Shown: positions 4,465-51,045 of the stretch, piece after piece
How the letters are laid out: each line of letters opens with the position of its first letter
Numbering within the stretch: position 1 is the first letter of the stretch
Assembly (NCBI GenBank): GCA_965116875.1
Contig: OZ220733.1
Coordinates: 483,767-547,766 of the forward strand
DNA: 64,000 bases
Origin: Candidatus Latescibacterota bacterium
GTDB taxonomy: Bacteria; Latescibacterota; UBA2968; GCA-2709665
Direction of reading: 5' to 3'
Program-made: the position numbers and the translations under genes
Notes under the pieces: model-generated
Told to the model about the DNA's origin: nothing
Seen by the model: only the letters and a program-made list of their open reading frames with translations
Database searches by the model: none

Positions 4465-4526
4465 CAGTCCGTTGATAAAGTCGCTCTGCAGGCGAGGCCG
4501 GATGGGCTTTTTCAACGGGCTGCTAA
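4465..4526 (+). repeat. Family-A intergenic palindromic element, short form (copy A1)
   Basis: CAGTCCGTTGATAAAGTCGCTCTGCAGGC...GGATGGGCTTTTTCAACGGGCTGCTAA. The two arms are imperfect inverted repeats. The same arms recur at 16722, 51062 and as a half copy at 56056. This copy lacks the inner GCCTGCC..GGCAGGC hairpin of the long form. Confidence 0.85.
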
Positions 4527-6049
4527 ACCGGGCGGTCCCTTGAAATGAAGCGTGGCCGCAACCTTGCGGTAACGTGCGGATTGCGAGACGCCTCACCAGC
4601 GACTCCGTTCGAGGCGTCGACGTATGCCTTCAGGTGCGTTAAGGCGTTTCCGCTGTCGATGGCGTCCCTGGCGCGTTCGACGGCCGTTGACGGGTCGACA
4701 TCAAATCCAAGCAGATGATCTTTCATTGCTGCGTTGAGCACGATCTGGTCGTAGACCCAGCCTCTATTCCCGGAAAGAGCGGAAAGGCCCGTTCCGGCAA
4801 AGGCGTCTGCACACACGGCTTCGGGTCGAGGCTGACTGTCGTACCTGAATCCGGCTGCCGCCGGGTCGACGTCGCGATCGTACGTTTCAGTTCGTCCGTC
4901 GCCGGTCCGGAAACCCCTTACGTTGTTGATGGCCTTCCGTCCGCCGTCGGAGGGTTTGCCCAGCCGCAGCCCCAGCGAACTGCCGCCCTCCATTCCCTTC
5001 ACGACAAGGCATGAGTGGAGACCCCGGTCCGCTGCCAGTTGAAGGAACATATCCTCGTACCCCGGATGGTAATAGCCCACCACCATGTGGTTTTCACCCG
5101 GGCACGTGAAGAGTTGCTGGGCCTTTTCCGTTGCCGCCCAGGGAGGCCGTTTGCCGATATGCGCGCGGAGTTCCCTGGTTGCGTACGCCGACGGCGAGAA
5201 GATGCGCTGGCTGACGTAGGCAAAACCCACGTGCGGTTTCTCGATCAGTTCTCCGGCATGTTCCAGAGAGAGATCGACGTTCGCCCCCAGCGCTTTCAGG
5301 AGCTGTTCGTCGGTGACTCCCCATTTCGGCGGCATTCCATCCACGCCGTGCAGTACCGTCGGGCGTCCGAGCGCGGCCCTGACCGCCGCGACGAAAAGGG
5401 TCGGCCGGAAGTATCTGTTCGATCCGTCGTAGGGTTCACCGAAATGGGTGAGCGAGCCGACGTTCAGCTCCACAACGCCGGACGGGTCAAACGCGGCGTC
5501 CAGGTATCCGCGCGCCTCGTCGTATGTCTCGCGATTCATCCGCTGTCCGATGAGCGCAGCGCCATTGAGCGCTGCTCGCCCATGTCGGCCAAGTATGACG
5601 CCGCACATCCGGCGTGTCTCGACATAACTCAGGTGATCACCGGCGAGGATCTTACGGAGAGAGGATATGAGAACCGCTTCCTGATCGTTTTTCGCTTTCA
5701 GCTTCGAGGAGGGTTCCAGTAGAAAAAGAACCTCCGTCGGCAGGCTTTGACGGAGGGCCTCACGATTCCCTTCAAACGCTTCGGTTTCGGCGCAACTCCA
5801 CCGGGTCCGTGGAGGAAATCCGCGCCGCAGCGCCATGGCGACGAAGAAAGCACCCATCTGGACAGGCGATACACGTATCGTATCAGGGTATTCCTCTCTG
5901 ACGGAACGCAGAATCAGTTCCAGAATGCGGCCCGGCCGGGGGTCGGCGGGTTTTACGCCCAACGGCCGGGACTGATGAGGTCCGGTGCAGACGCGGGATT
6001 GGGCTTCCAGCACTTCCGGGTTCGGACCCGTGTAGCGTTCAGTCGTCAT
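4523..6049 (-). CDS. Glycosyl transferase family 3 / anthranilate phosphoribosyltransferase-like protein
   Basis: Track ORF 4523..6211. I prefer the ATG at 6049 (AGGAA 9 nt upstream). A TrpD-like N-terminal helical segment (ILAGDHLSYVETRRMCGVILG...AALIGQRMNRETYDEARGYLDA) is followed by a PRT-like core (GEPYDGSNRYFRPTLFVAAVRAALGRPTVLHG...). It is longer than canonical TrpD, so the specific function is uncertain. Confidence 0.55.
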   Translation of the reverse strand: MTTERYTGPNPEVLEAQSRVCTGPHQSRPLGVKPADPRPGRILELILRSVREEYPDTIRVSPVQMGAFFVAMALRRGFPPRTRWSCAETEAFEGNREALRQSLPTEVLFLLEPSSKLKAKNDQEAVLISSLRKILAGDHLSYVETRRMCGVILGRHGRAALNGAALIGQRMNRETYDEARGYLDAAFDPSGVVELNVGSLTHFGEPYDGSNRYFRPTLFVAAVRAALGRPTVLHGVDGMPPKWGVTDEQLLKALGANVDLSLEHAGELIEKPHVGFAYVSQRIFSPSAYATRELRAHIGKRPPWAATEKAQQLFTCPGENHMVVGYYHPGYEDMFLQLAADRGLHSCLVVKGMEGGSSLGLRLGKPSDGGRKAINNVRGFRTGDGRTETYDRDVDPAAAGFRYDSQPRPEAVCADAFAGTGLSALSGNRGWVYDQIVLNAAMKDHLLGFDVDPSTAVERARDAIDSGNALTHLKAYVDASNGVAGEASRNPHVTARLRPRFISRDRPV

Positions 6050-9524: not shown

Positions 9525-10496
9525 ATGTCGGATACGGTATTGTATCTCTCGAGAAATGACGTGGAAGCGGTGAATCTGTCGATGTCCGAAATCATCGACG
9601 GGCTGGACAGGATGTTTGTGGAAAAGGGACAAGACAAGGTGGAAATGCCTCCAAAACCGGGCATCCACACGCAACCGGATGCATTCATTCACGCGATGCC
9701 TGCGTATATACCGAGCCTTGAATCGGCGGGAATGAAGTGGGTGTCGGGATACCCTGAAAACCAGGCAAAGGGGTTGCCGTACATCACCGGGTTGTTGATT
9801 CTGAACGATCCCGAAACCGGCATTCCCACGTGCGTAATGGACTGTACGTGGATCACGGCGATGCGGACGGGTGCGGCCACCGCGGTCGCTGCGAAATACC
9901 TGGCGCGCAAGGACAGCTCGACGGTTGGCATTGTCGCCTGCGGCGTTCAGGGCCGCGGCAATCTCGAAGCGCTCTCGTGCGTATTCGATATCCGGGAAGT
10001 CAAGGCGTACGATCTCTACCCGGATCTCGCCGATCGATTTGCGGCGGAAATGGGACGCCGGCTGGATGTACGGATAGAGCCGGTACGAGAGGCCTCAGAA
10101 GCGGTCAGGGGTCTGGACATCGTGGTTACCAGCGGTCCGGTCCTGAGACATCCGGAACCCGTGGTTGGAATCGGCTGGTTGTCCGAGGGGTCGTTTGCGT
10201 GTCCGCTGGATTTCGATTCCTACTTCCGGGTCGATGCGTTTCGCGAGGCCGACAAACTTGCGTGCGACGATATCGGTCAGCTGGACTATTACCGCAAGAC
10301 CGGTTATTTCGGCGATACGCCCCAACCCTATGCCGACCTCGGGGAAATCGCCGCGGGACTGAAACCAGGACGGGAGTCGGCGAAGGAGCGCACGATTGCG
10401 ATCAATCTGGGCCTCGGCCTGGAGGACATGGCGACTGCAATTCTGGTTTACCGTCGTGCGGTGGAGCTGGAAATCGGAACCGGGTTACCGCTGTAA
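9525..10496 (+). CDS. Ornithine cyclodeaminase / mu-crystallin family protein
   Basis: 323 aa. TAMRTGAATAVAAKYLARKDSSTVGIVACGVQGRGNLEAL is the typical OCD/mu-crystallin Rossmann region. Confidence 0.85.
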   Translation: MSDTVLYLSRNDVEAVNLSMSEIIDGLDRMFVEKGQDKVEMPPKPGIHTQPDAFIHAMPAYIPSLESAGMKWVSGYPENQAKGLPYITGLLILNDPETGIPTCVMDCTWITAMRTGAATAVAAKYLARKDSSTVGIVACGVQGRGNLEALSCVFDIREVKAYDLYPDLADRFAAEMGRRLDVRIEPVREASEAVRGLDIVVTSGPVLRHPEPVVGIGWLSEGSFACPLDFDSYFRVDAFREADKLACDDIGQLDYYRKTGYFGDTPQPYADLGEIAAGLKPGRESAKERTIAINLGLGLEDMATAILVYRRAVELEIGTGLPL

Positions 10497-10531: not shown

Positions 10532-11653
10532 ATGATTCGACAAACTGAGGACCCGGAAGAGATCGGGCTATCTGAAGAAGGCATGCGGACGGCATGCGGG
10601 ATCCTGGAGGAGGCGGTGGTCCGGGGAGAGTTGATGGGCGCCGCACTGCAGGTGTCACGGGGCGGCGTCGCCCTTCCGCCGGCGTGTTTCGGGCGCCGCA
10701 CCCTGGCCCCGGCCGGTTCTCCGGTTGCGCCGGATACACGATTCCTGGTTGCATCCATCACCAAGCCGATCGTCGCGGCGGCCGTCATGTTGCTCGTGGA
10801 GCGGGGCAAGGTCTGCCTGGACGACGCCGTGGCGGAGCTTGTGCCGGAGTTCGGTCAGGCGGGCAAGGAAGGCGTGCAGGTGCGGCATCTCCTGACCCAC
10901 ACGTCCGGACTGCCGGACATGCTCCCGCAGAATCTGGCGCTGCGGGCCGAGCATGCGCCGCTGGACGTCTTCATACAACACATTTGCGGGGTGGAACTGC
11001 TGTTTCAACCCGGGACGCGGATTTCCTATCAGAGTTGCGGTATTGCGATGCTTGGCGAGATTGTCCAGCGGATGGAGGCAGTACCCATCCGCACCTTCCT
11101 GAAACGTTCGTTCTTCGATCCGCTGGGACTCGAAAACACGTCGCTGGGTCTCCGGGAACGGAACGCGAGGGAGTCCGACGTGAAAATACACAGCGGGGAA
11201 TACGGCGAAGCGGACGCCGTGTCGTGGAACTGGAATTCCGACTACTGGCGCGGATTCGGCGCGCCATGGGGAGGGCTTTTGACGATACCGGCTGAAATGA
11301 CGGCGCTCTGTCAGGCCTTTCTGTACGGCGGATCGCTGAACGGAATCCGCATTCTGAGTCCGGCAACGGTTTCCGCGATGACAACTGACCAGACGTCAGC
11401 GATGCCGGACCTGGACCGGACCGACAGATTCCGGCAGCGCTGGGGGTTGGGATGGCGCCTGAAGGACCGGATGAGTTCAATCTTCGGCGATATGACTTCG
11501 GACGCAACCTTCGGACACGAGGGGGCGACCGGCACGGTGGCGTGGGTGGATCCCGAAACGGAGACGACGTGCGTATTGTTTACCAACGACCCCCATGGCG
11601 CCGCTCCTCTGCGTCCACGGGTGGGCAACGCGGTTGCGGCCTCGGTGATGTAG
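10532..11653 (+). CDS. Serine hydrolase, beta-lactamase/penicillin-binding (class C-like) family
   Basis: SxxK motif in FLVASITKPIVAAAVMLLVERGKV, then LLTHTSGLPD. 373 aa. Confidence 0.85.
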   Translation: MIRQTEDPEEIGLSEEGMRTACGILEEAVVRGELMGAALQVSRGGVALPPACFGRRTLAPAGSPVAPDTRFLVASITKPIVAAAVMLLVERGKVCLDDAVAELVPEFGQAGKEGVQVRHLLTHTSGLPDMLPQNLALRAEHAPLDVFIQHICGVELLFQPGTRISYQSCGIAMLGEIVQRMEAVPIRTFLKRSFFDPLGLENTSLGLRERNARESDVKIHSGEYGEADAVSWNWNSDYWRGFGAPWGGLLTIPAEMTALCQAFLYGGSLNGIRILSPATVSAMTTDQTSAMPDLDRTDRFRQRWGLGWRLKDRMSSIFGDMTSDATFGHEGATGTVAWVDPETETTCVLFTNDPHGAAPLRPRVGNAVAASVM

Positions 11654-11737
11654 TCGCGTACCGTACCGCGGCCACCTCCGTAGTTACGTTCTCTTCGTAG
11701 TTTCGTTCTTTCGTAGTCTCGTAGTTTCCGAGCAGTT

Positions 11738-12706
11738 CTATCCCTCGACGTGAACGTGGCCGAAGAGTGTGCTGACCGACTCGTCGTTGTGGATGCGGCG
11801 GATGGCTTCCGACAGGATGGAAGCGACGGAAAGCACCTTGATTTTTCCGTTCTGGACGTTTTCAGGCACCGGAATGGAATTTGAGACGACCAATTCGGTC
11901 AGGATGGAGTTTTCCACCCGCTCGACCGCGGGGCCGGCCAGTACGGGATGTACGATTACGGCGCTGATGTCGAGCGCGCCCTGTTTTCTCAGCGCCGTAG
12001 CGGCCTCAACGAGCGACCCGCCCGTAGAAATGAGGTCATCGATGATCACGGCGTTCTTTCCTTCCACGTCGCCGATAATGTTCAGAACTTCGGTCTGCGT
12101 TCCACTCGAGCGTCGTTTGTCTACAATGGCAAGGGGCGCGTCCAGCAGTTCGGAATAGGCCCGGGTCATTTTGATGTTGCCCACGTCGGGCGTGACCGTG
12201 ACCAGGTTTTCCATGCCTTTTTCCATCAGGTAGTTTCCAAAGACGTTGATGGAGTAGAGGTGGTCCATGGGGATGTCAAAAAATCCCTGGATCTGGTTGG
12301 AATGCAGATCCAGCGAAAGGACCCTTCTGGCGCCGGCCGTAACGACAAGGTTCCCGATCAGTTTGGCGGTTATTGGAACCCGCGGCCTGTCCTTCCGGTC
12401 CTGCCGGGCATACCCGTAATAGGGTAATACGGCAGTGATCCGCCGCGCGGAGGCCCGACGGGCCGCGTCGATGAGGATGAGGATTTCCATCAGGGCGTCG
12501 TTGGGCGTGAATTCCCCGTTACCACAGATGGGCTGAACGATATAGACGTCGTTGCCTCGCACGTTCTCCCGGATTTGAACGCCGGTTTCCCCTCCAGGGA
12601 AACTGACGACTTCGGCTTCTCCCAGAGTGATGTCGAGGTGTCGGCAGATCTCTTCGGCCAGGGGCCTGTTGATGTTGCCGGTGAAAATCTGACAGTCGTA
12701 TCCCAA
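11738..12706 (-). CDS. prs: Ribose-phosphate pyrophosphokinase
   Basis: IFTGNINRPLAEEICRHL, VYIVQP, LPYYGYARQDRK and the PRPP-binding loop AVIIDDLISTGGSL. Track ORF extends to 12802. I prefer TTG at 12706, which is preceded by AAGGAGG with an 8-nt spacer and gives a typical ~322-aa Prs. Confidence 0.9.
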   Translation of the reverse strand: MGYDCQIFTGNINRPLAEEICRHLDITLGEAEVVSFPGGETGVQIRENVRGNDVYIVQPICGNGEFTPNDALMEILILIDAARRASARRITAVLPYYGYARQDRKDRPRVPITAKLIGNLVVTAGARRVLSLDLHSNQIQGFFDIPMDHLYSINVFGNYLMEKGMENLVTVTPDVGNIKMTRAYSELLDAPLAIVDKRRSSGTQTEVLNIIGDVEGKNAVIIDDLISTGGSLVEAATALRKQGALDISAVIVHPVLAGPAVERVENSILTELVVSNSIPVPENVQNGKIKVLSVASILSEAIRRIHNDESVSTLFGHVHVEG

Positions 12707-12803
12707 AACGTCAGCCTCCTTCGGGGAGTTCGAGTCGCGGAATTGAAGAAATTTCCCGGGGAAGAACAGATGGAATATATAAACCGTCTGACGGTGGATC
12801 AAT

Positions 12804-13532
12804 ATGTTTCAAATCCTCTACCAGGACGACTGCTACGTTGCCGTTGACAAACCGAGCGGCATTTTCGTACACCCGACCCGCCTGGGGCGACGGGAACCCG
12901 ACTGCATGTCCCGCCTGGGCCGGCAACTGGGTCGTCCCGTTTTTACGATTCACAGGTTGGACCGCGCCACCTCCGGCGTGCTTCTCTTCGCGCTGAGTTC
13001 CGAGGCGGCCCGGAAAATGTGCCTCCTGTTCGAAGAACGACGCATCCGCAAGGAATACCTGGCCGTGGTTCGGGGGTTTGCGCCCGAAGCCGGACGGGTC
13101 GATCACGCCCTGCGCAGACACCGGAAAAACTCAGCGGTGGATGCGGTTACCGACTTTGTACGGGTAGGAACGGCCGAACTACAGGAGCCGGTTGGCAGAC
13201 ATGAAACAGCGCGCTTCTCACTGGTACGGGCGGTGCCTCAGACCGGCCGCATGCACCAGATCCGGAGACACATGGCCCATATCTCCCATCCCGTTCTCGG
13301 CGACACCAGGTACGGCGACGGCGCGCAGAACCGGTTCTTTCGCGCCCGGTTCGGTGTGCGCCGTCTGGCGCTTGTGGCCGTCCGCCTCGCGTTTCTGCAC
13401 CCATATACCGGGGAAGATGTTTCAGTCGTTGCGGAACCTTCGGAGGATCTCAGGGCGACGTTCGCCGGGTTGGGCTGGAACGCGTCGTTGGCGGCCTGCT
13501 CTCATTCGCCCCTGGCTTCCTCTACGCTTTGA
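12804..13532 (+). CDS. truC: RluA-family pseudouridine synthase, TruC-like
   Basis: MFQILYQDDCYVAVDKPSGIFVH...HRLDRATSGVLLFALSSEAA...GRMHQIRRHMAHISHPVLGDTRYGD aligns along its whole length with my memory of E. coli TruC. Confidence 0.8.
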   Translation: MFQILYQDDCYVAVDKPSGIFVHPTRLGRREPDCMSRLGRQLGRPVFTIHRLDRATSGVLLFALSSEAARKMCLLFEERRIRKEYLAVVRGFAPEAGRVDHALRRHRKNSAVDAVTDFVRVGTAELQEPVGRHETARFSLVRAVPQTGRMHQIRRHMAHISHPVLGDTRYGDGAQNRFFRARFGVRRLALVAVRLAFLHPYTGEDVSVVAEPSEDLRATFAGLGWNASLAACSHSPLASSTL

Positions 13533-14566
13533 GGCCGCCCCGAAACATCCCCGCCGGCCCACCTGTACAGCCTGGGAAACAGCGATAGCGTTCGATCCTC
13601 GAGCGGCAGCCTTACGGGCGCGCTGTTGCCGCGCACCGATTGTCTGGACGCAATGGACACCTCGAGGGCCTGTCGCAGATCATGGCCGGTAATCCACGGT
13701 TCACCCTGCCCCCGTACTGCCGCCAGGAAAGAACGGAGCGATCCGGTCAGATATTGATACTCGCGCCATTCATAAGGCTCATAGGCCGTTTGCTCTCTGA
13801 TGCGACGTCCTGCTTGATCAAATCCCGTGTAGACCTCCGGCGGCGCCCAGTTCCATCGCACCAGAGAATCATCGGTCCACACGTCCACGCCGCCGTGCGG
13901 CGTTGGCATGCCGAACACGGCACAATCGATGCCCGAACTCATGCGAAACCATCCATGAACAACCAGACCCTCATCCGTTTCCGCAGCCAGCGCCTCCTCC
14001 GCCGCTCCCCAGGCCATGACTTCCTCCACTTCCGCATCGGCAAACAGCCTGAGTACCGATATATGCTGACAACAACCGCCCGAAATCTCACCGCCGAATC
14101 CGTGGACGCTGGCCCCTCTCAAAACGCCGAATTCACCGGCGCGAATCCGTCCCGCCGCCTCCTGCACCTCGTGCATCGCCCGCTGCAGATTGCCCCCGCC
14201 GAACACAACGTCCCGTTTTTTGCAGACGTCGACCATCTCGTCCGCATCGGCCAGCAGACCGGCGATGGGCTTCTCCGCCGTCACCCCTTTTACGCCCGCC
14301 TGCGCGCACGCCACCACGGCATCTTTAATATACTTTACCGGTGTCACCACGGAGGCCACGTGGGGAACCTCGTCTCGCAGCAGGGCCTCCGCGTCCGGGT
14401 ACAGCGCCCCAACCCCGAATCGCTCGCCCACCGCGCGGCGTCGTTCCGCGTTGACCTCGGCGATGGCGACGAGTTCCGTATCCGGATAGGCCGAAAATGC
14501 TTCTGCGTAAACCTGGCCCATACGACCGCATCCGATGACCGCTGCTCGTAATCTGACGTCACTCAT
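13502..14566 (-). CDS. Gfo/Idh/MocA family oxidoreductase
   Basis: LRAAVIGCGRMGQVYAEAFSAYPDTELVAIAEVNAERRRAVGERFGV. 354 aa. Its 3' end overlaps the convergent truC-like gene by about 31 nt. Confidence 0.85.
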   Translation of the reverse strand: MSDVRLRAAVIGCGRMGQVYAEAFSAYPDTELVAIAEVNAERRRAVGERFGVGALYPDAEALLRDEVPHVASVVTPVKYIKDAVVACAQAGVKGVTAEKPIAGLLADADEMVDVCKKRDVVFGGGNLQRAMHEVQEAAGRIRAGEFGVLRGASVHGFGGEISGGCCQHISVLRLFADAEVEEVMAWGAAEEALAAETDEGLVVHGWFRMSSGIDCAVFGMPTPHGGVDVWTDDSLVRWNWAPPEVYTGFDQAGRRIREQTAYEPYEWREYQYLTGSLRSFLAAVRGQGEPWITGHDLRQALEVSIASRQSVRGNSAPVRLPLEDRTLSLFPRLYRWAGGDVSGRPQSVEEARGE

Positions 14567-43156: not shown

Positions 43157-44335
43157 ATGGAACGTGACGACGTGAGAAAGAGATTGGACGCGCTGGAGGA
43201 GAGGCTGCGCTGGCAGAAGCGGGCGATTGCGGGGTTGCTCGTCTTATTTCTGTTCAGCGCAGCGCCGGTTCTGACCCGGACGCCGAAATGGTTCGGCGTG
43301 ATGCTCCCGTCAAAACTGACCTCGCTGAGCTTTCGAGACGGCGTTACCACCGGCGACGTACGGTTCGGAGATCTCTCGCCAACCCGCGCCGGTCTCCCGT
43401 TGCCGGAGGCCGCCAGCGATGGGCTGAGCAAAATTGCTCCTGAGCAAATCGTCGATGCCGGTGACACCTTGCGCGTGCGTACGCTACACATTGTAAATGC
43501 AGGCGGGGCGGTCGTCGCGGAAGTCGGGTCTGATGAGTCCGGGGACGGCTCACTCGCGATCTGGAACAGTGCCGGCGCCCTCGTTTCCGTCGTGGGCGTA
43601 GACAGAAACGGCCACGGTACGCTGGGAGTCCTCAATGCGGCGGGCCGTGTCGCGGCCGCCATGGGCGCGGATCCGACAGAACAGGCCAATGGCTGGATGG
43701 ACGTCAGGAGCGCAACCGGGTCCGCTGCCGCACTCGCATTCGATAATGCCGGAGACGGCGCGATTGCCGTGTTTAACACGGATGACAAGCTTGTTGCCGG
43801 ATTCGGTATCGACGCCAACGGTCACGGCGCCCTCCGTGTCTGGAACGCGTCGGGCGGGATCGCCGCTGCGATCGGCGCGGATGAGACGGAGGACGCCAAC
43901 GGATGGATGGATGTCAGGAACAAGTCGGGGCCGGCGGCGGGACTCTCCGTCGACGCGGACGGCGACGGCCTGGTAATCGCGGGCAACCGGGACGGCGGTC
44001 CGACTTCGATAATGGGCGCGAATGGGAGCGGACACGGAATCATCGGGTTCAGGAATGCGTCCGGCAGGGTTGTGGCCGGCATGGGCGCCGATTCGACCGG
44101 CATTGGGGGATTGAGTATCGAAGGAGGCAGGTTCGGAGCCTATGTCGACGGGAACGCCAACGGCGTGGCGGAGACTCGGGGCAACAACGGGGAGGTTCGA
44201 TGGTCCTCCGAAGCGCCCGCCGTCGGTGATACCGGCACGTCAACCGGGCTGATCGGGGATTTCGACGGGGACGGCGACGTGGACTTCAACGACTTCCTCA
44301 CCTTTACCGCGAATTTCGGTAAGACGAGCGGGTAG
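43157..44335 (+). CDS. N-terminally TM-anchored repeat protein (about ten 21-24-aa Gly/Asp-rich repeats) with a single C-terminal dockerin-like Ca-loop
   Basis: GAAGGAG Shine-Dalgarno sequence. Cytoplasmic helix MERDDVRKRLDALEERLRWQKR is followed by hydrophobic AIAGLLVLFLFSAAPVL. Repeats look like LAIWNSAGALVSVVGVDRNGHGT / LRVWNASGGIAAAIGADETEDANGW. Tail is GDFDGDGDVDFNDFLTFTANFGKTSG. Confidence 0.8.
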   Translation: MERDDVRKRLDALEERLRWQKRAIAGLLVLFLFSAAPVLTRTPKWFGVMLPSKLTSLSFRDGVTTGDVRFGDLSPTRAGLPLPEAASDGLSKIAPEQIVDAGDTLRVRTLHIVNAGGAVVAEVGSDESGDGSLAIWNSAGALVSVVGVDRNGHGTLGVLNAAGRVAAAMGADPTEQANGWMDVRSATGSAAALAFDNAGDGAIAVFNTDDKLVAGFGIDANGHGALRVWNASGGIAAAIGADETEDANGWMDVRNKSGPAAGLSVDADGDGLVIAGNRDGGPTSIMGANGSGHGIIGFRNASGRVVAGMGADSTGIGGLSIEGGRFGAYVDGNANGVAETRGNNGEVRWSSEAPAVGDTGTSTGLIGDFDGDGDVDFNDFLTFTANFGKTSG

Positions 44336-44499
44336 CAGAAAGCGCGTTGGGATGGCGGCCCCGCCCCGGTGCGCGGCGCGGAGTGTGATCGCGACCGACG
44401 ACGACGACGAAACGTGAATTGGCGGGTGAATTCAAATGGTCTGATGCAGGCGGTGGAGGCTCCAGTCCGGGGCCGATTCGACGCGAAGGAGTGTTGGAT

Positions 44500-45987
44500 A
44501 TGCGATTGAACAACTCCTTATTTCCAATGACTGCCGTCTTCGCCTGTATGTTTGCAGGAGCGGAATGCCCTTCGGCAGCGGCGGAAGACGATTCCGCAAC
44601 TTCAGCCGACGGTCGTAACCTGCCGCCCGTGATTGTCAAAGCGGGAAGAAATGGAGCATACGGATATTCCCAAACAGTGGGTTCCGGTTTTTCTTTCTCT
44701 TCCAGCAAGACCCTGGCCGAGGGAAAGATGGAAGAAGGACTTGCGGAATTCCGTTCTGACAAGGACGTCGTATGGCTCTATTACAACTCGGAGGCCAACG
44801 ACCCCGACGGGGACGAAGTGCAGTATATCTGGTCTCAGGTTTCACCGGAAAAGCCGGTGGCGATCATCGAACAGGATGATTCCTTCGTTCCCAGTGGGCA
44901 GTCAGTTGACGTGAAAGTATGCACTCCTCCCTCAGGTGCTGAGATCACGCTTCAAGTCGTAGCGATGGACAGGAACGGCGCCAGAAGCGAACCCAGGTCG
45001 GTCATCGTGAACGCCGCCGGCTGCGCGTCGGAAGCGCGCTGGGCGCGGTTGTCCAGATTTGCCCGATTGCGCGAAGCCGCCAATCAGGGAGATCATATAT
45101 CTCAAAGAGACCTCGCATTAGCCTATATCAACGGCGACGGCGTTTTCAAGAATGTGAAAAAAGGAACTGACCTCATGCAATCGCAGGCGGAGGCTGGAAA
45201 TGCCGAAGCACAAGCTCAATGGGCCTTTTTTCTCGACACGGGGAAGCACAGATTAAAAAAAGACAAAAAGAAAGCGCTTGAGTGGTATCGCGCTGCAGCC
45301 CGGCAGGGCCATGCGCATGCACAATATGCCGTGGGGTTCTACGAGAAGGACAAGCGAGAGGCGCAGAGGTGGTACAAACTGGCGGCCGAGCAGGACAACA
45401 TGTCCGCACAATTCAGTTTGGCAAAGATGCTGGCTGAGGGTGACGGCGTAGCGAAGGATCTGGTTGCGGCGAAGGAGTGGATGCAAAAATCGGCTGATCG
45501 TGGGCACAAACGCGCCAAGACCTGGTTAGAAAACTGGGAGGTGGCCACTGCTTTCGATGCGTCCGGAAATCGGCCGCCGCAATTGACGTCGGTTACCTAT
45601 ACGGGAGATCACAGCCCTGCCTCGGTTTCCTATTCCGCCGACAAGGTGACGTACAAGGACGGGAAATGGATCACTGAGGGGGGAAAGACCGGCGTCAACA
45701 AGATTGTGTGGCGAAAGTTTAACGTTCGAGCTGAAGATTTCGATGGCGAGGCGATTCGATATCTCGTTACGCAGACATCGCCAGTTACTCCCAAAGTCAC
45801 AATCGGCGGTCAGCGAAACGTATTCAAATATCATGCCTCCGGCAAGGAAGTCATGTTTGCAGTCTGCTTCCCTCAGATTTCCAGTGGAGAATTCACGTTT
45901 CAAGTGATTGCCGAGGATAAACGCGGCGGAAGAAGCGCTCCCAGGACAATCGCGCTCGAGGCGATAAGATCGGACAAGTGCCAGTGA
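44500..45987 (+). CDS. Secreted Sel1-repeat protein flanked by two homologous Ig/PKD-like domains
   Basis: The ATG at 44500 has AAGGAG upstream and is followed by signal peptide MRLNNSLFPMTAVFACMFAGAECPSAAA. Sel1 repeats: ALEWYRAAARQGHAHAQYAVG, AQRWYKLAAEQDNMSAQFSLAKMLAEGDGVAKDLVAAKEWMQKSADRGH. Duplicated flanks: DPDGDEVQYIWSQVSPEKP...ITLQVVAMDRNGARSEPRSV versus DFDGEAIRYLVTQTSPVTP...FTFQVIAEDKRGGRSAPRTI. Confidence 0.8.
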   Translation: MRLNNSLFPMTAVFACMFAGAECPSAAAEDDSATSADGRNLPPVIVKAGRNGAYGYSQTVGSGFSFSSSKTLAEGKMEEGLAEFRSDKDVVWLYYNSEANDPDGDEVQYIWSQVSPEKPVAIIEQDDSFVPSGQSVDVKVCTPPSGAEITLQVVAMDRNGARSEPRSVIVNAAGCASEARWARLSRFARLREAANQGDHISQRDLALAYINGDGVFKNVKKGTDLMQSQAEAGNAEAQAQWAFFLDTGKHRLKKDKKKALEWYRAAARQGHAHAQYAVGFYEKDKREAQRWYKLAAEQDNMSAQFSLAKMLAEGDGVAKDLVAAKEWMQKSADRGHKRAKTWLENWEVATAFDASGNRPPQLTSVTYTGDHSPASVSYSADKVTYKDGKWITEGGKTGVNKIVWRKFNVRAEDFDGEAIRYLVTQTSPVTPKVTIGGQRNVFKYHASGKEVMFAVCFPQISSGEFTFQVIAEDKRGGRSAPRTIALEAIRSDKCQ

Positions 45988-46169
45988 GAGTGCGCACGAG
46001 AAGGGCAGATCTCAAGGGTGGTGGGAATCGACGCTGGTCCTCCGAACCATCCTCCGTTGGTGATACCGGCACGTCAACCGGTCTGATCTGGGAATTCGAC
46101 GGGGACGGCGACGTGGACTTCAACGACTTCCTCACCTTTACCGCGAATTTCGGTAAGACGAGCGGGTAA
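45978..46169 (+). pseudogene. Orphan 3'-end copy of the 43157-44335 gene (dockerin-like tail fragment)
   Basis: 46035-46169 aligns without gaps to 44201-44335. By hand count about 126 of 135 nt are identical, and the last ~70 nt before the stop are identical. It encodes ...RRWSSEPSSVGDTGTSTGLIWEFDGDGDVDFNDFLTFTANFGKTSG in the -1 frame relative to the Sel1 ORF, whose stop it overlaps. Confidence 0.65.
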
Positions 46170-46481
46170 CGAGCCCTCCCCGGCACAGGGATGGGAGCAT
46201 GCTCCCATCCGACGTCATGCGCCTCATGCAAACGTTGAGAGGGAGTTGCAGAAGCCGAGCCGTCCCCTGAGCTTGTCGAAGGGCCGGCGACGGCTGATGC
46301 GGTGGAAGGACTACAACGCGATTCCTTATTCAAGCAGAATTATCAAAAACGAACGCATCTTGCGTTGAAGTGTCTGAACCCCTTATATGTATTTCTACGT
46401 CCCGGCGATCCGAAGTCTTCACCGCCGCAATCGCTCGCTTTCTGCCGAGACTTGCGGCCAATTTATATTGGGAGAGTAGCA

Positions 46482-47612
46482 ATGAATCCACTTGAAGAAC
46501 GGATGAACAGGTTAGAGACGCGCGTTACGCGGTATCGCAATTTCAACGTTTTGTTGTGCCTCCTGCTGGTAACCGTCGTCACAGTTGCCGCAAAAGAAAC
46601 TGTATCGCCATTTCAGGCGAAAGCAGCCCATGAGTCCGTTGCTATGCCGCGAGGTGACTTCGGCGTTCCAGAATTGTCGGACCGTGGTGCAGATGCTGTA
46701 ATGGAACCGGAAGTTCGGAGTGCTGGAAAAGTTGCGGCACAGACGCAGGGCTTGATTCGCGCGACGGGACTGCAGATTGTAAACAGCGACGGACAGGCGG
46801 TTATTGAACTGGGGTTCAGCAGGTCGGGCGACGGTCTCGTCTTTGTCAAATCTGCACAAGGCAAGAGACTGATTTACGTCGGGCCGAGCGCATCTAACGA
46901 CGATGGTTTGGTCTTGATCAGCTCAAAGGAAGAAAAAAGCCTGATAGCGTTGGGATCAGATTCTGAGTCGGGAGACGGTTTCATCGGCATCAGAAACAGA
47001 AATGAAGAGCGTTTGATCAGTTTGAGGACCGGCGAGAGCGCTGGATGGATTAGAATCGACAAAACCGGAAATGAGAACTTAGCGTACATCGGTGCTAGTA
47101 CTCATGACAATGGACTATTGAGCCTGAGCAATAGATCCGGAAAGGGCCTTGTAACAATGACTGCAGACGACATTGCCGGCAATCTGCAGCTACGAAACAA
47201 TAGCGATAAGATGATCGCCTACCTGGGTTGGAGTAGCGAAGGCCAGGGAGTAATGAAGATTAACTCCAAGACCGGTACGGAACTCATTACGGCGGGTTCA
47301 AACGTAGAAGATGACGGACTGCTCAGGGTAAGCAATCGCTATGGAACTCTCGGTTTTTTCGTTGTTAGTACTGAACTTCACGGCTATGTGGGAATTCAGG
47401 ATAACCAGGAGAGGCTGCTTGCAGACCTGACAGCGACGGCGGGCGGCGATGGGCTTATGCGCACGTTGTCCAGGCAGGGTATCACGACGTGGTCCAGCGC
47501 TTCCTTTCAAGGCACCTCGGGTTCGACGTCCTTGAAGGGTGATATGGACAACGATGGCGATATTGACGGGGATGATTTCCTCATCTTCTCTGAAAACTTC
47601 GGTAAGAAATAG
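46482..47612 (+). CDS. Divergent paralogue of the TM-anchored repeat protein, with a single C-terminal dockerin-like Ca-loop
   Basis: Same architecture as the 43157 gene: MNPLEERMNRLETRVTRYRN then TM FNVLLCLLLVTVVTVAA. About 11 repeats (LQIVNSDGQAVIELGFSRSGDGL, LISSKEEKSLIALGSDSESGDGF, MKINSKTGTELITAGSNVEDDGL), then TTWSS and tail GDMDNDGDIDGDDFLIFSENFGKK. Lower GC and Ser/Asn/Lys-rich compared with its Ala/Gly-rich neighbour. Confidence 0.8.
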   Translation: MNPLEERMNRLETRVTRYRNFNVLLCLLLVTVVTVAAKETVSPFQAKAAHESVAMPRGDFGVPELSDRGADAVMEPEVRSAGKVAAQTQGLIRATGLQIVNSDGQAVIELGFSRSGDGLVFVKSAQGKRLIYVGPSASNDDGLVLISSKEEKSLIALGSDSESGDGFIGIRNRNEERLISLRTGESAGWIRIDKTGNENLAYIGASTHDNGLLSLSNRSGKGLVTMTADDIAGNLQLRNNSDKMIAYLGWSSEGQGVMKINSKTGTELITAGSNVEDDGLLRVSNRYGTLGFFVVSTELHGYVGIQDNQERLLADLTATAGGDGLMRTLSRQGITTWSSASFQGTSGSTSLKGDMDNDGDIDGDDFLIFSENFGKK

Positions 47613-47627
47613 TGAGCATTGATAATT

Positions 47628-50498
47628 ATGCCAGGATTACAAAGTTTGCTATTTGCATTCTCTGCGTTCGTCCTACTCTTTCATTGCGGCATAGTATTTG
47701 GATCTCCGCCGATTGAGTACGTCAAGGAACAGCATCCGCCGAAACTGGAAGGCGTACTCGCCCGAATTCAGAAGAACTGGTCGGCGCAGAAACGGGCGCT
47801 GGCCGAGGCGACGGCGAGACAATATAGGGCCGCAAAAATCGTTGGCGAAAACATCACGGTCGTATTGGAGCCCGGCCCCGGAAAGCTCTCAGAAAGCATC
47901 GATTTTACGGCATTGTCCGACCTGGGTGTCAGCGTTGTCGCCCAATCGCAGCACCTAGTGGAGGTATCCGCACCGATAGCCCGCCTTGAGAGGGTGGCAG
48001 AGGTGGATGGCGTGCAATTTGTGAGATTGCCCATAGAGCCGAAAACGCAGACCGTTGTGAGTGAGGGCGTGGATCGCATCAGTGCACAGGTCTTTTCAAA
48101 CAGGGGTTTTACAGGGCGTGGCATTAAGGTAGGGGTAATTGACATCGGTTTCGCGGGGGTTCCGGAGTTAATGAGTCAAGGCGAATTGCCGCAGAATCTA
48201 CCCCCCCAAGATTTCACTAACGCAGGGATTTTTGTTGGCGACGAGGTACATGGATCGGCCTGCGCCGAAATCGTGCACGATATCGCTCCGGATGCTGAAA
48301 TCTACCTGTATGACGTAAAAAACGATGTCCGCTGGCAAATCGCGAAAGAAGCAGCGGTCCAGGAGGGCCTCGACATTGTCTCGGTATCTTTGGTCTTCCC
48401 AGTAATGGGCTTCGGTGACGGAACGGGCCCTGCCTGTGAACTTGTAGATGATGCTTTTAAGAAAGGTGTCTTGTGGGTGAATGCGGCGGGAAATTATGCA
48501 CAATCCCAGATCTTCCAATTGTCAAGTGACCCGGATGGCGATGGGTTTCACAACTTCGAAGGCGAAAATGAAATCGTTTACCTGAAGAATGTCCAAGTAG
48601 GAGATGAAGTAGAAGCATGGCTGAACTGGAATGAATGGCCACTCACGTCTAACGATTACGATCTATTTCTTGTTAAAATCGGGTCGGACGGTGGTATTAC
48701 CGAAGTTGAACGAGCAAATACAGAGCAATCTCGCCATCGGTCACCTCCGTTCGAACGGCTTGTCCATACGATTCGGGACGCAGGAAACTATGGATTTGCC
48801 ATCTGGAGGGCACAGGACTCCAAAGTAACCCAACTTAAGCTGATCAGCACAAACCACGACTTCGACGGGCTACTATCCAGTAAAGGGACCGTGAGCATAC
48901 CCGGGGACGCGGTCGGCGCCCTGACCGTGGGAGCGTTGCATCATCGGGAATGGAAGACAGCGATCGCTGAGTACAGTTCGCAAGGACCTACGTCTGACGG
49001 GCGAATCAAGCCGGATTTGGTTGCTCCTGCTGGTGTCAGTACCATTAGCTACAGCCCCAAGCCATACTTTGGAACATCGGCGGCGACTCCTCATGTCGCC
49101 GGGGCAGCAGCTCTCTTGAAGTCCTCTGATCCCGTCCACTACAATGCGCAGAATCTATATGACGCACTGTTGAGATCGACGATCGACATGGGAGTTCCGG
49201 GCCCCGATAATTTCTATGGACATGGAAGATTGGATTTGTCGCTGCTTTCACCCACGGGCAGACCTGTTATCGAACTTTCGCGTAATGTACTTGATTTCGG
49301 CGCTATCCTGCTGGGATCATCACAGACGCTGGATCTCGGCATAGTCAACACGGGTCCGTCGTCGTTGGTGATTACGGAAATCCTTCTGCCATCCAGTGAT
49401 TTCGGCCTCTCTAAAAGTTCCTTTCCCGTTGCGCCGGGACGCGGCGAGAGGATTTCCGTCACGTTTACCCCTCGGAGTGAGGGAGACAGATCCGGTGATA
49501 TGACGATTTTGAGCAATTTACCGCAAACCAACGTGGCCCTGCGAGCGCGAGGCGTCCGGCAACCCGTTGTTCCTGTTCCACGGATCGCGATGGATGCGTC
49601 CCGACGCGATTTTGGCGGCGTCGAGGTTGGCGACTCAAAGTCAATTGTTGTAACGGTCACGAATTCCGGTGACGCCTCGCTGTCCATTACGGATATCACC
49701 ACCAATGCCAGACGGCTTAGCGTGTCACCCACGCAATTCTCGATTCCAGCAAAGCAAAACGGGTATTTCACGCTTCGTTTCCAGCCAGACAGAGCGGGTG
49801 ATCTGTCAGCACGCGTGACCATTTACAGCAATGATTCCAAGACGCCGGTTGTCGGCTTCCCCATCGTGGGAAAGGGGCTTCGGTCCCAGGCTACCTCTTT
49901 TACGTTATCTCTCGTCGTCGATGCGCCGAAAGACCAGGGTGTGTATTCTTTGCCGTCAGACGGTGTCATTTCCATCGAAATCTTAGGCCAACAGGTTAAG
50001 GACGCCATAGGATTTCGCGCGTTGTTTGATTCCGATACGCCATCCTTCACCTATACGGGTTTCGACATTGGCGACGGCATTCCCAATGGACACTCGCCGG
50101 GGCCCTACTATCCCTCCGGTCCCGCTTCCGTTGAAGTGATGGCGGCATCATTTGGCGGAAGAATCGCTGTGCCGTCCGCAAAACTCGGCACGGTACGTTT
50201 TAGCGTAGCCGATACCCTTCAAAGAGGTCAAATGCGGCTGCGATATGCCCGAATCCGGCGAGCCGGAAAATTCGAAGTATTCACCGATCCTGTCGTATTG
50301 AGATTTTCGAAACAGGGCGGCTTGCCAGCAGACTTCGACGGCGACGGGACCGTCGGGTTCAGCGATTTCTTGCAGTTTGCTGGCGCGTTCGGATCAGGTC
50401 GCGGCGATGCGGGATATGACGCGCGGTACGATCTGGATGGGAATGGCAGCGTCGGGTTCAGCGACTTTGTCATCTTTGCGGGCAGCTTTGGCACGTAG
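47628..50498 (+). CDS. Secreted subtilisin-like (S8) serine protease with Ig-like domains, a possible cohesin-like module and a C-terminal double dockerin
   Basis: Signal peptide MPGLQSLLFAFSAFVLLFHCGIVFG. Catalytic triad contexts VGVIDIGF (Asp), HGSACAEIVHDIAP (His) and GTSAATPHVAGAAALL (Ser). Two choice-of-anchor-D/ASH-like beta-sandwiches (LDFGAILLGSSQTLDLGIVNTG..., RDFGGVEVGDSKSIVVTVTNSG...). Tail DFDGDGTVGFSDFLQFAGAFG...DLDGNGSVGFSDFVIFAGSFGT. Confidence 0.88.
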   Translation: MPGLQSLLFAFSAFVLLFHCGIVFGSPPIEYVKEQHPPKLEGVLARIQKNWSAQKRALAEATARQYRAAKIVGENITVVLEPGPGKLSESIDFTALSDLGVSVVAQSQHLVEVSAPIARLERVAEVDGVQFVRLPIEPKTQTVVSEGVDRISAQVFSNRGFTGRGIKVGVIDIGFAGVPELMSQGELPQNLPPQDFTNAGIFVGDEVHGSACAEIVHDIAPDAEIYLYDVKNDVRWQIAKEAAVQEGLDIVSVSLVFPVMGFGDGTGPACELVDDAFKKGVLWVNAAGNYAQSQIFQLSSDPDGDGFHNFEGENEIVYLKNVQVGDEVEAWLNWNEWPLTSNDYDLFLVKIGSDGGITEVERANTEQSRHRSPPFERLVHTIRDAGNYGFAIWRAQDSKVTQLKLISTNHDFDGLLSSKGTVSIPGDAVGALTVGALHHREWKTAIAEYSSQGPTSDGRIKPDLVAPAGVSTISYSPKPYFGTSAATPHVAGAAALLKSSDPVHYNAQNLYDALLRSTIDMGVPGPDNFYGHGRLDLSLLSPTGRPVIELSRNVLDFGAILLGSSQTLDLGIVNTGPSSLVITEILLPSSDFGLSKSSFPVAPGRGERISVTFTPRSEGDRSGDMTILSNLPQTNVALRARGVRQPVVPVPRIAMDASRRDFGGVEVGDSKSIVVTVTNSGDASLSITDITTNARRLSVSPTQFSIPAKQNGYFTLRFQPDRAGDLSARVTIYSNDSKTPVVGFPIVGKGLRSQATSFTLSLVVDAPKDQGVYSLPSDGVISIEILGQQVKDAIGFRALFDSDTPSFTYTGFDIGDGIPNGHSPGPYYPSGPASVEVMAASFGGRIAVPSAKLGTVRFSVADTLQRGQMRLRYARIRRAGKFEVFTDPVVLRFSKQGGLPADFDGDGTVGFSDFLQFAGAFGSGRGDAGYDARYDLDGNGSVGFSDFVIFAGSFGT

Positions 50499-50808: not shown

Positions 50809-51045
50809 GTGAAAAATCAGGAAATTACAATTCGCGTATCTCCGGAGGCCGCTCGTTTTTATCAGTCCGCATCATCACAGGATCGTCGAAAATTAAATGT
50901 CTTGTTAAGTCTGCAATTGAGCGGTTTGAGAAAACCGGCACGTCCAATTGAAGACATTATGCGCGAAGCCAGTGAAGAAGCGCGAAAAAATGGATTGACA
51001 TCTGAAATACTGACAGAACTACGCCACCTCATGAATTCCTGCTGA
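50809..51045 (+). CDS. Small hypothetical protein (78 aa), possibly antitoxin/DNA-binding-like
   Basis: GTG start in a low-GC spacer. The sequence ITIRVSPEAARFYQSASSQDRRKLNVLLS is vaguely ribbon-helix-helix-like. No partner toxin ORF is present. Weak call. Confidence 0.35.
   Translation: MKNQEITIRVSPEAARFYQSASSQDRRKLNVLLSLQLSGLRKPARPIEDIMREASEEARKNGLTSEILTELRHLMNSC

Follow-up and report, generated by a model that had tools for sequence, protein, structure and literature searches.

Cellulosomes are held together by cohesin-dockerin pairs, high-affinity connectors that are standard there and have been widely reused in synthetic biology; the roles of such pairs beyond polysaccharide degradation are, to our knowledge, largely hypothetical. 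Here we describe a locus at positions 43157-50498 of a 64,000-nt stretch of contig OZ220733.1 from a Candidatus Latescibacterota bacterium (the whole stretch is hereafter the window), in which connectors of the cellulosomal type are probably used, judging from homology and gene order, for assembling a protease instead of cellulases. Its core is a pair of adjacent genes, one for a putative membrane-anchored repeat protein that ends in a single dockerin repeat (open reading frame 4, ORF4), and one for a subtilase (ORF5) that carries a predicted cohesin as well as a two-repeat dockerin.

Several described systems bear on this arrangement. In the non-cellulosomal systems of Clostridium perfringens and Archaeoglobus fulgidus, it is the enzymes, not scaffoldins, that bear cohesin and/or dockerin modules and associate mutually; some of these are glycosidases, and for the others no role is known. 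For freshwater Planctomycetes, a cohesin/dockerin machinery for peptide degradation, the "planctosome," has been hypothesized, in which peptidases with dockerins are combined with an adaptor and an anchor protein (Andrei et al., 2019, PMC6461901). In Ruminococcus flavefaciens FD-1, dockerins occur on peptidases, leucine-rich repeat proteins, and many unknown modules, and a single binding mode was proposed for its "truncated" group-2 dockerins (Rincon et al., 2010, PMC2930009).

The cohesin and dockerin modules of the locus are, by sequence, members of known families or very close to them. The protease tail aligns over its full length with the dockerin of a cellulosomal pair, that of the Pseudobacteroides cellulosolvens Cel48 dockerin and ScaA cohesin (2y3n_B), the module upstream of it in ORF5 is likewise cohesin-like by profile and predicted fold (the Acetivibrio cellulolyticus ScaC cohesin, 4uyp, being another such cellulosomal module), and both modules lie on one polypeptide, as in adaptor scaffoldins. 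The assembly is nevertheless not a cellulosome, since no multi-cohesin or other scaffoldin, no carbohydrate-binding module, and no glycoside hydrolase or other carbohydrate-active enzyme was seen in the locus; the dockerin bearers are a subtilase, here the cargo, and two repeat proteins, as an earlier note made from the window sequence alone had also observed. The presumptive anchors carry half a dockerin rather than cohesins with surface-layer homology domains or sortase signals, and the host belongs to an uncultured Latescibacterota/Gemmatimonadota-labeled lineage, not to the Firmicutes. Structurally, the modeled ORF5 cohesin is best matched by modules of the C. perfringens glycosidase/toxin complexes (2vo8, 2jh2, 2w1n) and by the A. 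fulgidus cohesin 2xdh; a conserved membrane-anchored partner with a single dockerin repeat has not been reported from those systems. The planctosome shares with the locus a proposed role in degrading peptides, not cellulose, and a purely bioinformatic basis, but it involves M12B and M14 metallopeptidases and an LTD-domain anchor, and lacks the half-dockerin, the beta-hairpin ribbon family, a cohesin internal to the peptidase, and the conserved two-gene unit (PMC6461901). The R. flavefaciens system is a true cellulosome with scaffoldins, and its truncated dockerins do not sit on N-terminally anchored repeat proteins whose partner is an enzyme with a cohesin (PMC2930009). The earlier view that the cluster matches no described system thus holds in part: the conserved two-gene unit, the cohesin within the protease, and the large family of anchored hairpin-ribbon proteins ending in one dockerin repeat appear to be new, but non-cellulosomal assemblies, dockerin-bearing peptidases, and the planctosome were already in the literature (PMC6461901, PMC2930009). 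The features on which the argument turns are as follows.

43157..44335, plus strand: ORF1, 392 aa, putative anchor and beta-hairpin repeat protein with a single C-terminal dockerin repeat
46395..46481, plus strand: upstream element of ORF4, inverted repeat GCCGCAA-N21-TTGCGGC and GGGAGA ribosome-binding site
46482..47612, plus strand: ORF4, 376 aa, paralogue of ORF1 with a single C-terminal dockerin repeat, partner gene of the protease
47619..50498, plus strand: ORF5, predicted 959-aa subtilase with signal peptide, pro-region, S8 domain, two Ig-like domains, cohesin, and dockerin
48060..49238, plus strand: S8 catalytic domain, ORF5 residues about 148-540 (Pfam PF00082 and subtilisin alignment)
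49263..49871, plus strand: two Ig-like domains, ORF5 residues about 549-751 (NF012200, PF22544, PF07610)
49896..50318, plus strand: predicted cohesin module, ORF5 residues about 760-900 (Pfam matches of homologues, Protein Data Bank [PDB] profile match, AlphaFold2 [AF2] and Foldseek)
50325..50495, plus strand: two-repeat dockerin, ORF5 residues 903-959 (phmmer against 2y3n_B, EF-hand_1)

A common C-terminal tail had been reported for three products and a fragment encoded among five same-strand ORFs, and both the coordinates of these ORFs on the plus strand and the motif copies were confirmed. A six-frame pattern search for a Ca2+ loop followed by a helix returned matches at 44258-44320, 47541-47603, 50331-50393, and 50430-50492, and a looser first position added the copy in a short fragment downstream of ORF2, in which E replaces the first D; all five copies in the window lie within this 7.3-kb stretch, against none in 40 shuffles searched with the looser pattern. 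The ORF1 product ends in GDFDGDGDVDFNDFLTFTANFGKTSG (coded at 44258-44335) and the ORF4 product in GDMDNDGDIDGDDFLIFSENFGKK (47541-47612), each a single dockerin repeat, while both repeats are present in ORF5, as DFDGDGTVGFSDFLQFAGAFG and DLDGNGSVGFSDFVIFAGSFGT joined by a 12-aa linker. Dockerins have two tandem repeats of about 22 residues, in each of which a helix comes after a 12-residue Ca2+ loop with D or N at positions 1, 3, 5, 9, and 12. The two repeats of ORF5 (residues 903-959) are spaced 33 residues apart, with D or N at positions 1, 3, 5, and 12 and G at position 9, and AF2 predicts two helices in the tandem. Apart from the first repeat of the protease pair, the tails of the window stop 1-4 residues before the stop codon.

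Homology to a solved structure identifies the motif. The tandem tail of ORF5 matched the dockerin of a cellulosomal GH48 enzyme (2y3n_B) at E 2.2e-6 over 57 aa (residues 5-61 of 71; phmmer), and a profile built from the single tails in the two repeat-protein families (ORF1 and ORF4) matched each of the two repeats of 2y3n_B separately at E 6.1e-11, whereas calmodulin-type EF-hands reached only about 1e-3 with that profile, ~8 orders of magnitude worse. Such EF-hands have the same 12-residue Ca2+ loop (D at 1, 3, 5, and 12), but the window tails differ in having Asp, not Glu, at position 12, a helix ending in FGK, and the repeat spacing of dockerins. Pfam EF-hand_1 scored 29.4 bits on the isolated tandem tail, over its gathering score, and Dockerin_1 matched 15 of 17 relatives at E ≤ 1 (best 6e-4); the single tails of ORF1 and ORF4 had no Dockerin_1 match in Pfam. 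By these comparisons the tails are dockerin-type F-hands, as had been proposed. By this homology the dockerin of the protease is complete, and ORF1 and ORF4 have half a dockerin each, since their single tails equal one repeat of 2y3n_B; the earlier remark that the anchored proteins have only half a dockerin was therefore borne out.

By its motifs, ORF5 is an exported subtilase with an intact catalytic set: Peptidase_S8 (PF00082) matched at E 1.3e-25 (90.7 bits, gathering score 21.8), and Asp (VIDIG), His (HGS), Asn (AAGN), and Ser (GTSAATPH) motifs occur in a two-segment alignment to subtilisins in the order D-H-S, with an insert of ~120 aa separating the His/Asn half from the Ser half. Two Ig-like domains of the "choice-of-anchor D"/ASH/DUF1573 type follow (NF012200 1.3e-27; also PF22544 and PF07610). 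When S8/IetAS-type defense was considered, PADLOC returned only generic subtilase and weak IetS matches on the catalytic domain, and nothing on ORF1, ORF2, or ORF4.

Between the second Ig-like domain of ORF5 and its dockerin, a stretch of ~140 residues was at first unannotated, and the cohesin that it probably forms had not been noticed in the earlier note. With the last 215 residues of ORF5 as query, proteins 36-43% identical over >90% of the query were recovered that carry Pfam Cohesin (PF00963), and PF00963 matched 7 of 17 aligned members (best E 1.1e-8). A profile of residues 760-900 had two matches in the PDB, both cohesins (4uyp_A, 4.1e-5; 5g5d_A, 3e-3). The AF2 model of residues 745-959 (predicted local distance difference test score, pLDDT, 84.6) shows ~10 strands between residues 762 and 897, in keeping with the cohesin fold, a nine-stranded beta-sandwich (jelly roll) of about 140 residues. 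The structures in the PDB that Foldseek ranked highest against it were 2vo8, the cohesin of a C. perfringens GH33 enzyme (TMt 0.70, root-mean-square deviation 3.4), 2xdh, and 2jh2, along with many cellulosomal cohesins. Transitive homology and predicted fold together thus point to a cohesin at residues about 760-900, which places a candidate receptor for the tails within the cluster itself. It was the one cohesin-like module identified in the cluster, neither the whole window nor the rest of the genome having been scanned for cohesins, and queries with the cohesin region matched only protease genes among the fetched loci (L numbers below).

The conserved unit of the locus is ORF4 plus the S8 gene. 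The expectation that a repeat-protein gene and an S8 gene would be neighbors in other genomes was upheld throughout, an ORF4 homologue being followed by an orthologue of the S8-Ig-Ig-cohesin-dockerin gene in all six readable contexts (L016, L017, L018, L019, L020, and L021). Wherever the S8 gene is unbroken, it starts 3-6 nt after the ORF4 homologue (6 nt in the window); in L020, where an apparent frameshift splits it into two ORFs (11252-14208), its called start lies 120 nt away. An ORF1 homologue lies upstream of the pair in three genomes (the window, L016, and L021). The flanking genes are those of the window in L016 and different ones, including sulfatases and an RND transporter, in L019 and L020. 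The GC content of the pair is 0.51-0.54 against 0.60-0.62 in the flanks in three genomes (9-10 points lower), and 2-6 points under the flanks in two genomes of about 0.50 GC (spans compared: window 46482-50498; L016 10001-14050; L021 4864-8907; L019/L020 10001-14208). The unit behaves as a mobile-like element compositionally foreign to its surroundings, and its GC, being below that of the flanks, suggests horizontal acquisition. A metagenome scan with ORF5 yielded one locus, L021, and one with the ORF4 alignment yielded 600 pattern matches and no relative. Together with the cohesin in the protease, this strict conservation of the pair strengthens the earlier idea of a membrane-tethered protease assembly.

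Upstream of the pair, the element at 46395-46481 is kept in the window, L016 (~9915-10000), L018, and L021 (~4470-4560), with about 300 extra bases between it and the ORF4 homologue in L021; it is not conserved in L019 and L020, which have another upstream sequence in common. The element matched no Rfam family and may be a promoter or operator of the unit. Since ~90 nt upstream of ATG 46482 and the GGGAGA ribosome-binding site are kept in relatives, ORF4 most likely starts at this codon rather than at GTG 46302.

ORF1 and ORF4 are only 27% identical but share an architecture: an N-terminal helix running into a hydrophobic segment, a linker, about ten beta-hairpins of 23 residues, and one dockerin repeat. 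In ORF1 the hydrophobic anchor lies in the N-terminal helix at residues about 3-40 and the repeats, with a sequence period of 23 residues, at about 105-350. Its AF2 model (41-sequence alignment, mean pLDDT 69.6) has a continuous helix at 3-35, disorder at 36-104, 22 short strands in hairpins at 109-350 (pLDDT about 80-87), and, at a low confidence expected of an unpaired F-hand, a terminal helix and tail; Foldseek matched it to single-layer beta-sheet OspA constructs and to Rhs/YD shells; the repeat region is thus modeled as an extended antiparallel hairpin ribbon. The hydrophobic segments of the repeat proteins are 17-19 residues long and highly conserved, and a 3-4 hydrophobic spacing, seen by eye in the preceding helix, continues into the segment, which suggests an uncleaved signal anchor that may oligomerize. 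No family in Pfam, NCBIfam, PHROGs, or PADLOC covered ORF1 or ORF4; a sub-threshold XhlA match on the N-terminal helix of ORF1 (E 0.0024) was rejected as generic coil and membrane-segment similarity.

Both families are sizeable. ORF1 has at least 85 homologues, and every named one comes from a Gemmatimonadota-labeled metagenome-assembled genome (MAG), while the GTDB-species genomes that hold ORF1 relatives carry the name Candidatus Latescibacterota. The taxon labels themselves conflict, the same families appearing as "Gemmatimonadota bacterium" in NCBI MAG protein names and elsewhere as "Candidatus Latescibacterota/Latescibacteria bacterium"; the lineage of the window is probably Latescibacterota. 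The ORF1-family tail, GLIGDxDxDGDVDFxDFLxFxxNFGKTSG, is near-invariant down to 38% overall identity. The ORF4 family has >120 members, and over 110 homologues the column identity is 0.98 in the tail, 0.88-0.94 in the N-terminal coil and membrane segment, and 0.64-0.86 in the middle, so that the strongest constraint in ORF4 is at its two ends; its tail is also more conserved than the dockerin of the protease. Away from the pair, ORF1-family genes stand alone or beside other dockerin-tagged genes, such as one for a WD40-dockerin protein in L003 and one for a protein with an N-terminal dockerin in L008. In L004 (8755-9879), a gene of the IS605 OrfB/TnpB type lies directly upstream of an ORF1 homologue (41% identity).

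Two further features separate ORF1 from the pair.

44500..45987, plus strand: ORF2, exported Sel1-repeat protein, the repeats lying between two PKD-like Ig domains, no dockerin tail
46030..46169, plus strand: relic copy of the tail-coding 3' end of ORF1, a 137-nt repeat of 93% identity

The Sel1 protein had been regarded as cargo of the assembly, and an orphan fragment with the tail had been counted in the cluster; on comparison, neither belongs to the module. ORF2 has the Sel1 repeats (Pfam 2.5e-21), but the tail pattern finds no dockerin in it, and in the syntenic L016 and L021 nothing lies between the ORF1 homologue, the ORF4 homologue, and the S8 gene. Among 1.84 billion cluster representatives, two relatives with the full architecture of ORF2 (P0326 and P0329) were found, and both end in ...AIRSD(K/R)C(Q/G), at the same point as ORF2 and without a tail. 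As it is absent from these syntenic loci and its relatives are tail-less, the Sel1 gene is placed outside the module, as a strain-specific, low-GC insertion (GC 0.544, against a host-like 0.642 in ORF1); its start is most likely ATG 44500, after the gene call in L002. The gene is bracketed by 137-nt direct repeats (44198-44334 and 46032-46168, 93% identity, with 44335-46031 between them), and the similarity goes on, weaker, for about 45 nt beyond the stop; the ORF1 copy retains its native sequence just 3' of the stop. In the distal copy (fragment 45978-46169), the family-invariant G367 is changed to W and D368 to E, and no homologous coding sequence precedes it. Such an arrangement resembles an insertion or a segmental duplication with the tail-coding sequence serving as the homology, and the fragment is probably a non-functional, decaying relic of a duplicated ORF1 3' end, forming the right-hand repeat of the insertion. 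That the fragment might be a frameshifted C-terminus of the Sel1 protein was considered, its frame being open from ~45920 and overlapping the last 22 codons of ORF2, and was rejected, since both relatives end tail-less at ...AIRSDKCQ and the fragment has lost two family-invariant residues.

Two other assemblies with an identical ORF1 both break within the Sel1 gene (L001, which ends 430 nt past ORF1, and L002, 560 nt), which points to strain heterogeneity or a repeat-induced assembly failure at the insertion. Beyond the module, a 78-aa ORF at 50809-51045, between the protease gene and that for a major facilitator superfamily (MFS) transporter, has no Pfam match and no called counterpart in the syntenic L016. 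Neither Rfam families nor tRNAs were found in the window, and a promoter/terminator scan did no better there than on shuffles.

Across the clade, tandem dockerins also occur on small WD40 beta-propellers and on Big_1/CarboxypepD_reg, CARDB, and LTD proteins (P0224-P0325); these dockerin-tagged relatives have WD40, Big_1, CARDB, or LTD domains and no glycoside hydrolases. Runs of four consecutive dockerin-bearing genes are found on a Latescibacterota chromosome and in a Pirellulaceae MAG (dockerin-gene loci: L003 8766-9719; L013 3291-14963; L014 5170-10276), and there are stand-alone proteins composed of signal peptide, cohesin, and dockerin. Given the tandem dockerins on so many WD40, Ig-like, CARDB, and LTD proteins and the clustering of dockerin genes (L013), the ORF4-S8 module probably belongs to a larger cohesin-dockerin network not concerned with carbohydrates. 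In L022 (8001-14344), the gene for one such cohesin-dockerin protein (P0219) shares 4 nt with the start of the next, which encodes a 977-aa fn3/cadherin protein, and a gene for a cadherin/fn3/metallophosphatase protein follows; the neighbors of P0219 include no ORF1- or ORF4-like genes, and L022 may be another surface cluster linked by cohesin and dockerin. WD40, Sel1, and TPR proteins of sponge-associated Latescibacterota have been listed as "eukaryote-like proteins" (PMC12993501), and a sponge association of the present lineage is inferred from such literature. A literature search for Latescibacteria or sponge symbionts with dockerin or cohesin gave nothing relevant, and both words are absent from the texts of PMC12993501 and PMC8163846 on sponge-associated bacteria.

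We propose, with a probability of about 0.5, that ORF4 and the protease dock directly, forming a non-cellulosomal cohesin-dockerin module by which the subtilase is tied to a hairpin-ribbon protein anchored in the membrane. ORF4 would be a signal-anchored envelope protein with its N-terminus inside, and its Ca2+-loaded half-dockerin would plug into the protease cohesin, either by itself or once joined by the half-dockerin of a further ORF4 or ORF1 chain, so that the subtilase would be held at the cell envelope on the long ORF4 stalk. The full dockerin of the protease would stay free for another cohesin, on a second protease molecule or on a stand-alone cohesin-dockerin protein, and such onward docking would tie the module to the wider network of WD40, Ig-like, CARDB, and LTD proteins that bear dockerins. 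Neither the tail fragment nor the Sel1 gene, which stem from a later insertion between ORF1 and ORF4, would take part.

Several observations weigh against direct docking. We know of no lone dockerin repeat that folds or binds a cohesin by itself. The putative recognition positions 10-11 are GD in ORF4, FN in ORF1, and FS in the protease, and since they differ, the partners may differ as well. Of the Pfam families proposed earlier for the cluster, Peptidase_S8 and Sel1 were confirmed, but Dockerin_1 (PF00404), whose gathering score is 22.9 bits, fell a little short of it with 20.4 on the tandem tail taken alone and reached 14.4 in whole ORF5, and the cohesin region of ORF5 itself had no Pfam match at E ≤ 10 and no single-sequence phmmer match in the PDB, which is why the cohesin call draws on homologues and predicted fold. 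ORF1-family genes elsewhere mostly lack an S8 or cohesin gene alongside, no cohesin-like module having been found beside them in L003-L011, and a tail-less ORF4 paralogue is encoded in L020 (8637-9728), just upstream of the tailed copy. If the host is diderm, an N-in anchor would, barring cleavage of the N-terminus, make the assembly periplasmic. Separately, the first 36 residues of the tail-less L020 paralogue match the commonest N-terminus of the ORF4 family.

Among the alternatives, adjacency could reflect mere co-regulation, with ORF1, ORF4, and the protease all clients of a separate cohesin scaffold encoded elsewhere in the genome and the protease cohesin recruiting other dockerin proteins (WD40, Big_1, CARDB). 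The abundance in the clade of dockerin-tagged and stand-alone cohesin-dockerin proteins would fit this, as would the multi-dockerin-gene clusters that have no ORF4-like gene (L013, L014), the ORF1 homologues that adjoin other dockerin proteins and not proteases (L003, L008), and the differing recognition positions of the three tails; we nonetheless hold it to be somewhat unlikely, in view of the ORF4-S8 pair, which is strictly kept in all six contexts and moves as one compositional unit, and of the ORF4 tail, which is better conserved than the dockerin of the protease. A variant of direct docking that we offer as speculation, and regard as doubtful in its full extent, invokes "split dockerins": two anchored chains (ORF4/ORF4 or ORF4/ORF1), aligned by the heptad-patterned N-terminal helix and membrane segment, would build a composite two-repeat dockerin and only then bind the protease cohesin, and the clade-wide non-carbohydrate network would then array proteases and eukaryote-like WD40/Ig-like proteins on the envelope of possibly host-associated bacteria. 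Cohesin recruitment would in that case depend on oligomerization and Ca2+, an assembly mode not described so far.

Lif foldases, which are N-terminally anchored and encoded beside their lipases, offer an analogy for a different role, in which ORF4 would be a membrane-anchored helper of the protease (foldase, escort, or inhibitor) and its F-hand merely a Ca2+-dependent structural or dimerization element. Tight gene coupling and the N-terminal anchor are compatible with a helper, EF-hands usually come in pairs and AF2 models the lone tail at low confidence, and a tail-less paralogue exists (L020). Yet the partner protein contains a predicted cohesin, the tail is the best-conserved part of ORF4 and dockerin-like rather than a generic EF-hand, and no similarity to a known foldase or inhibitor emerged (nothing in Pfam, NCBIfam, PHROGs, or PADLOC; generic beta-ribbons in Foldseek), which leaves a helper role decidedly unlikely. 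Less probable still is a role of the tail as a C-terminal signal by which some export or attachment machinery sorts or anchors the protein, like the interchangeable anchors after "choice-of-anchor" domains: it does lie 1-6 residues from the stop codon in ORF1, ORF4, the S8 protein, and most relatives, is common to unrelated cargo domains, and in the protease comes after two choice-of-anchor D domains, but this reading is weakened by the tandem module being placed near the N-terminus of other proteins or inside them (L008, L012, L015), with P0216-P0219 extending far beyond it, and the tail has no hydrophobic or charged terminal segment typical of sorting tags and is homologous to a structurally defined protein-binding module. 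That there is no system, and that unrelated exported proteins share a low-complexity Asp/Gly motif by chance, is very improbable; Dockerin_1 does fall below the Pfam threshold and the motif pattern matched >598 stretches across GTDB genomes, but five copies against none in shuffles, the specific homology to a solved dockerin, and synteny kept across genomes and neighborhoods already contradict it.

The locus is a compact, conserved, and testable two-gene case, in which a subtilase with both socket and plug has an obligate neighbor whose membrane-anchored stalk bears half a plug. Direct docking of the two, if true, would document a protease-displaying cohesin-dockerin assembly in an uncultured Latescibacterota/Gemmatimonadota-labeled lineage and introduce a possible minimal or split dockerin, and it would suggest that the same connectors position many WD40, Ig-like, and CARDB proteins of these genomes.

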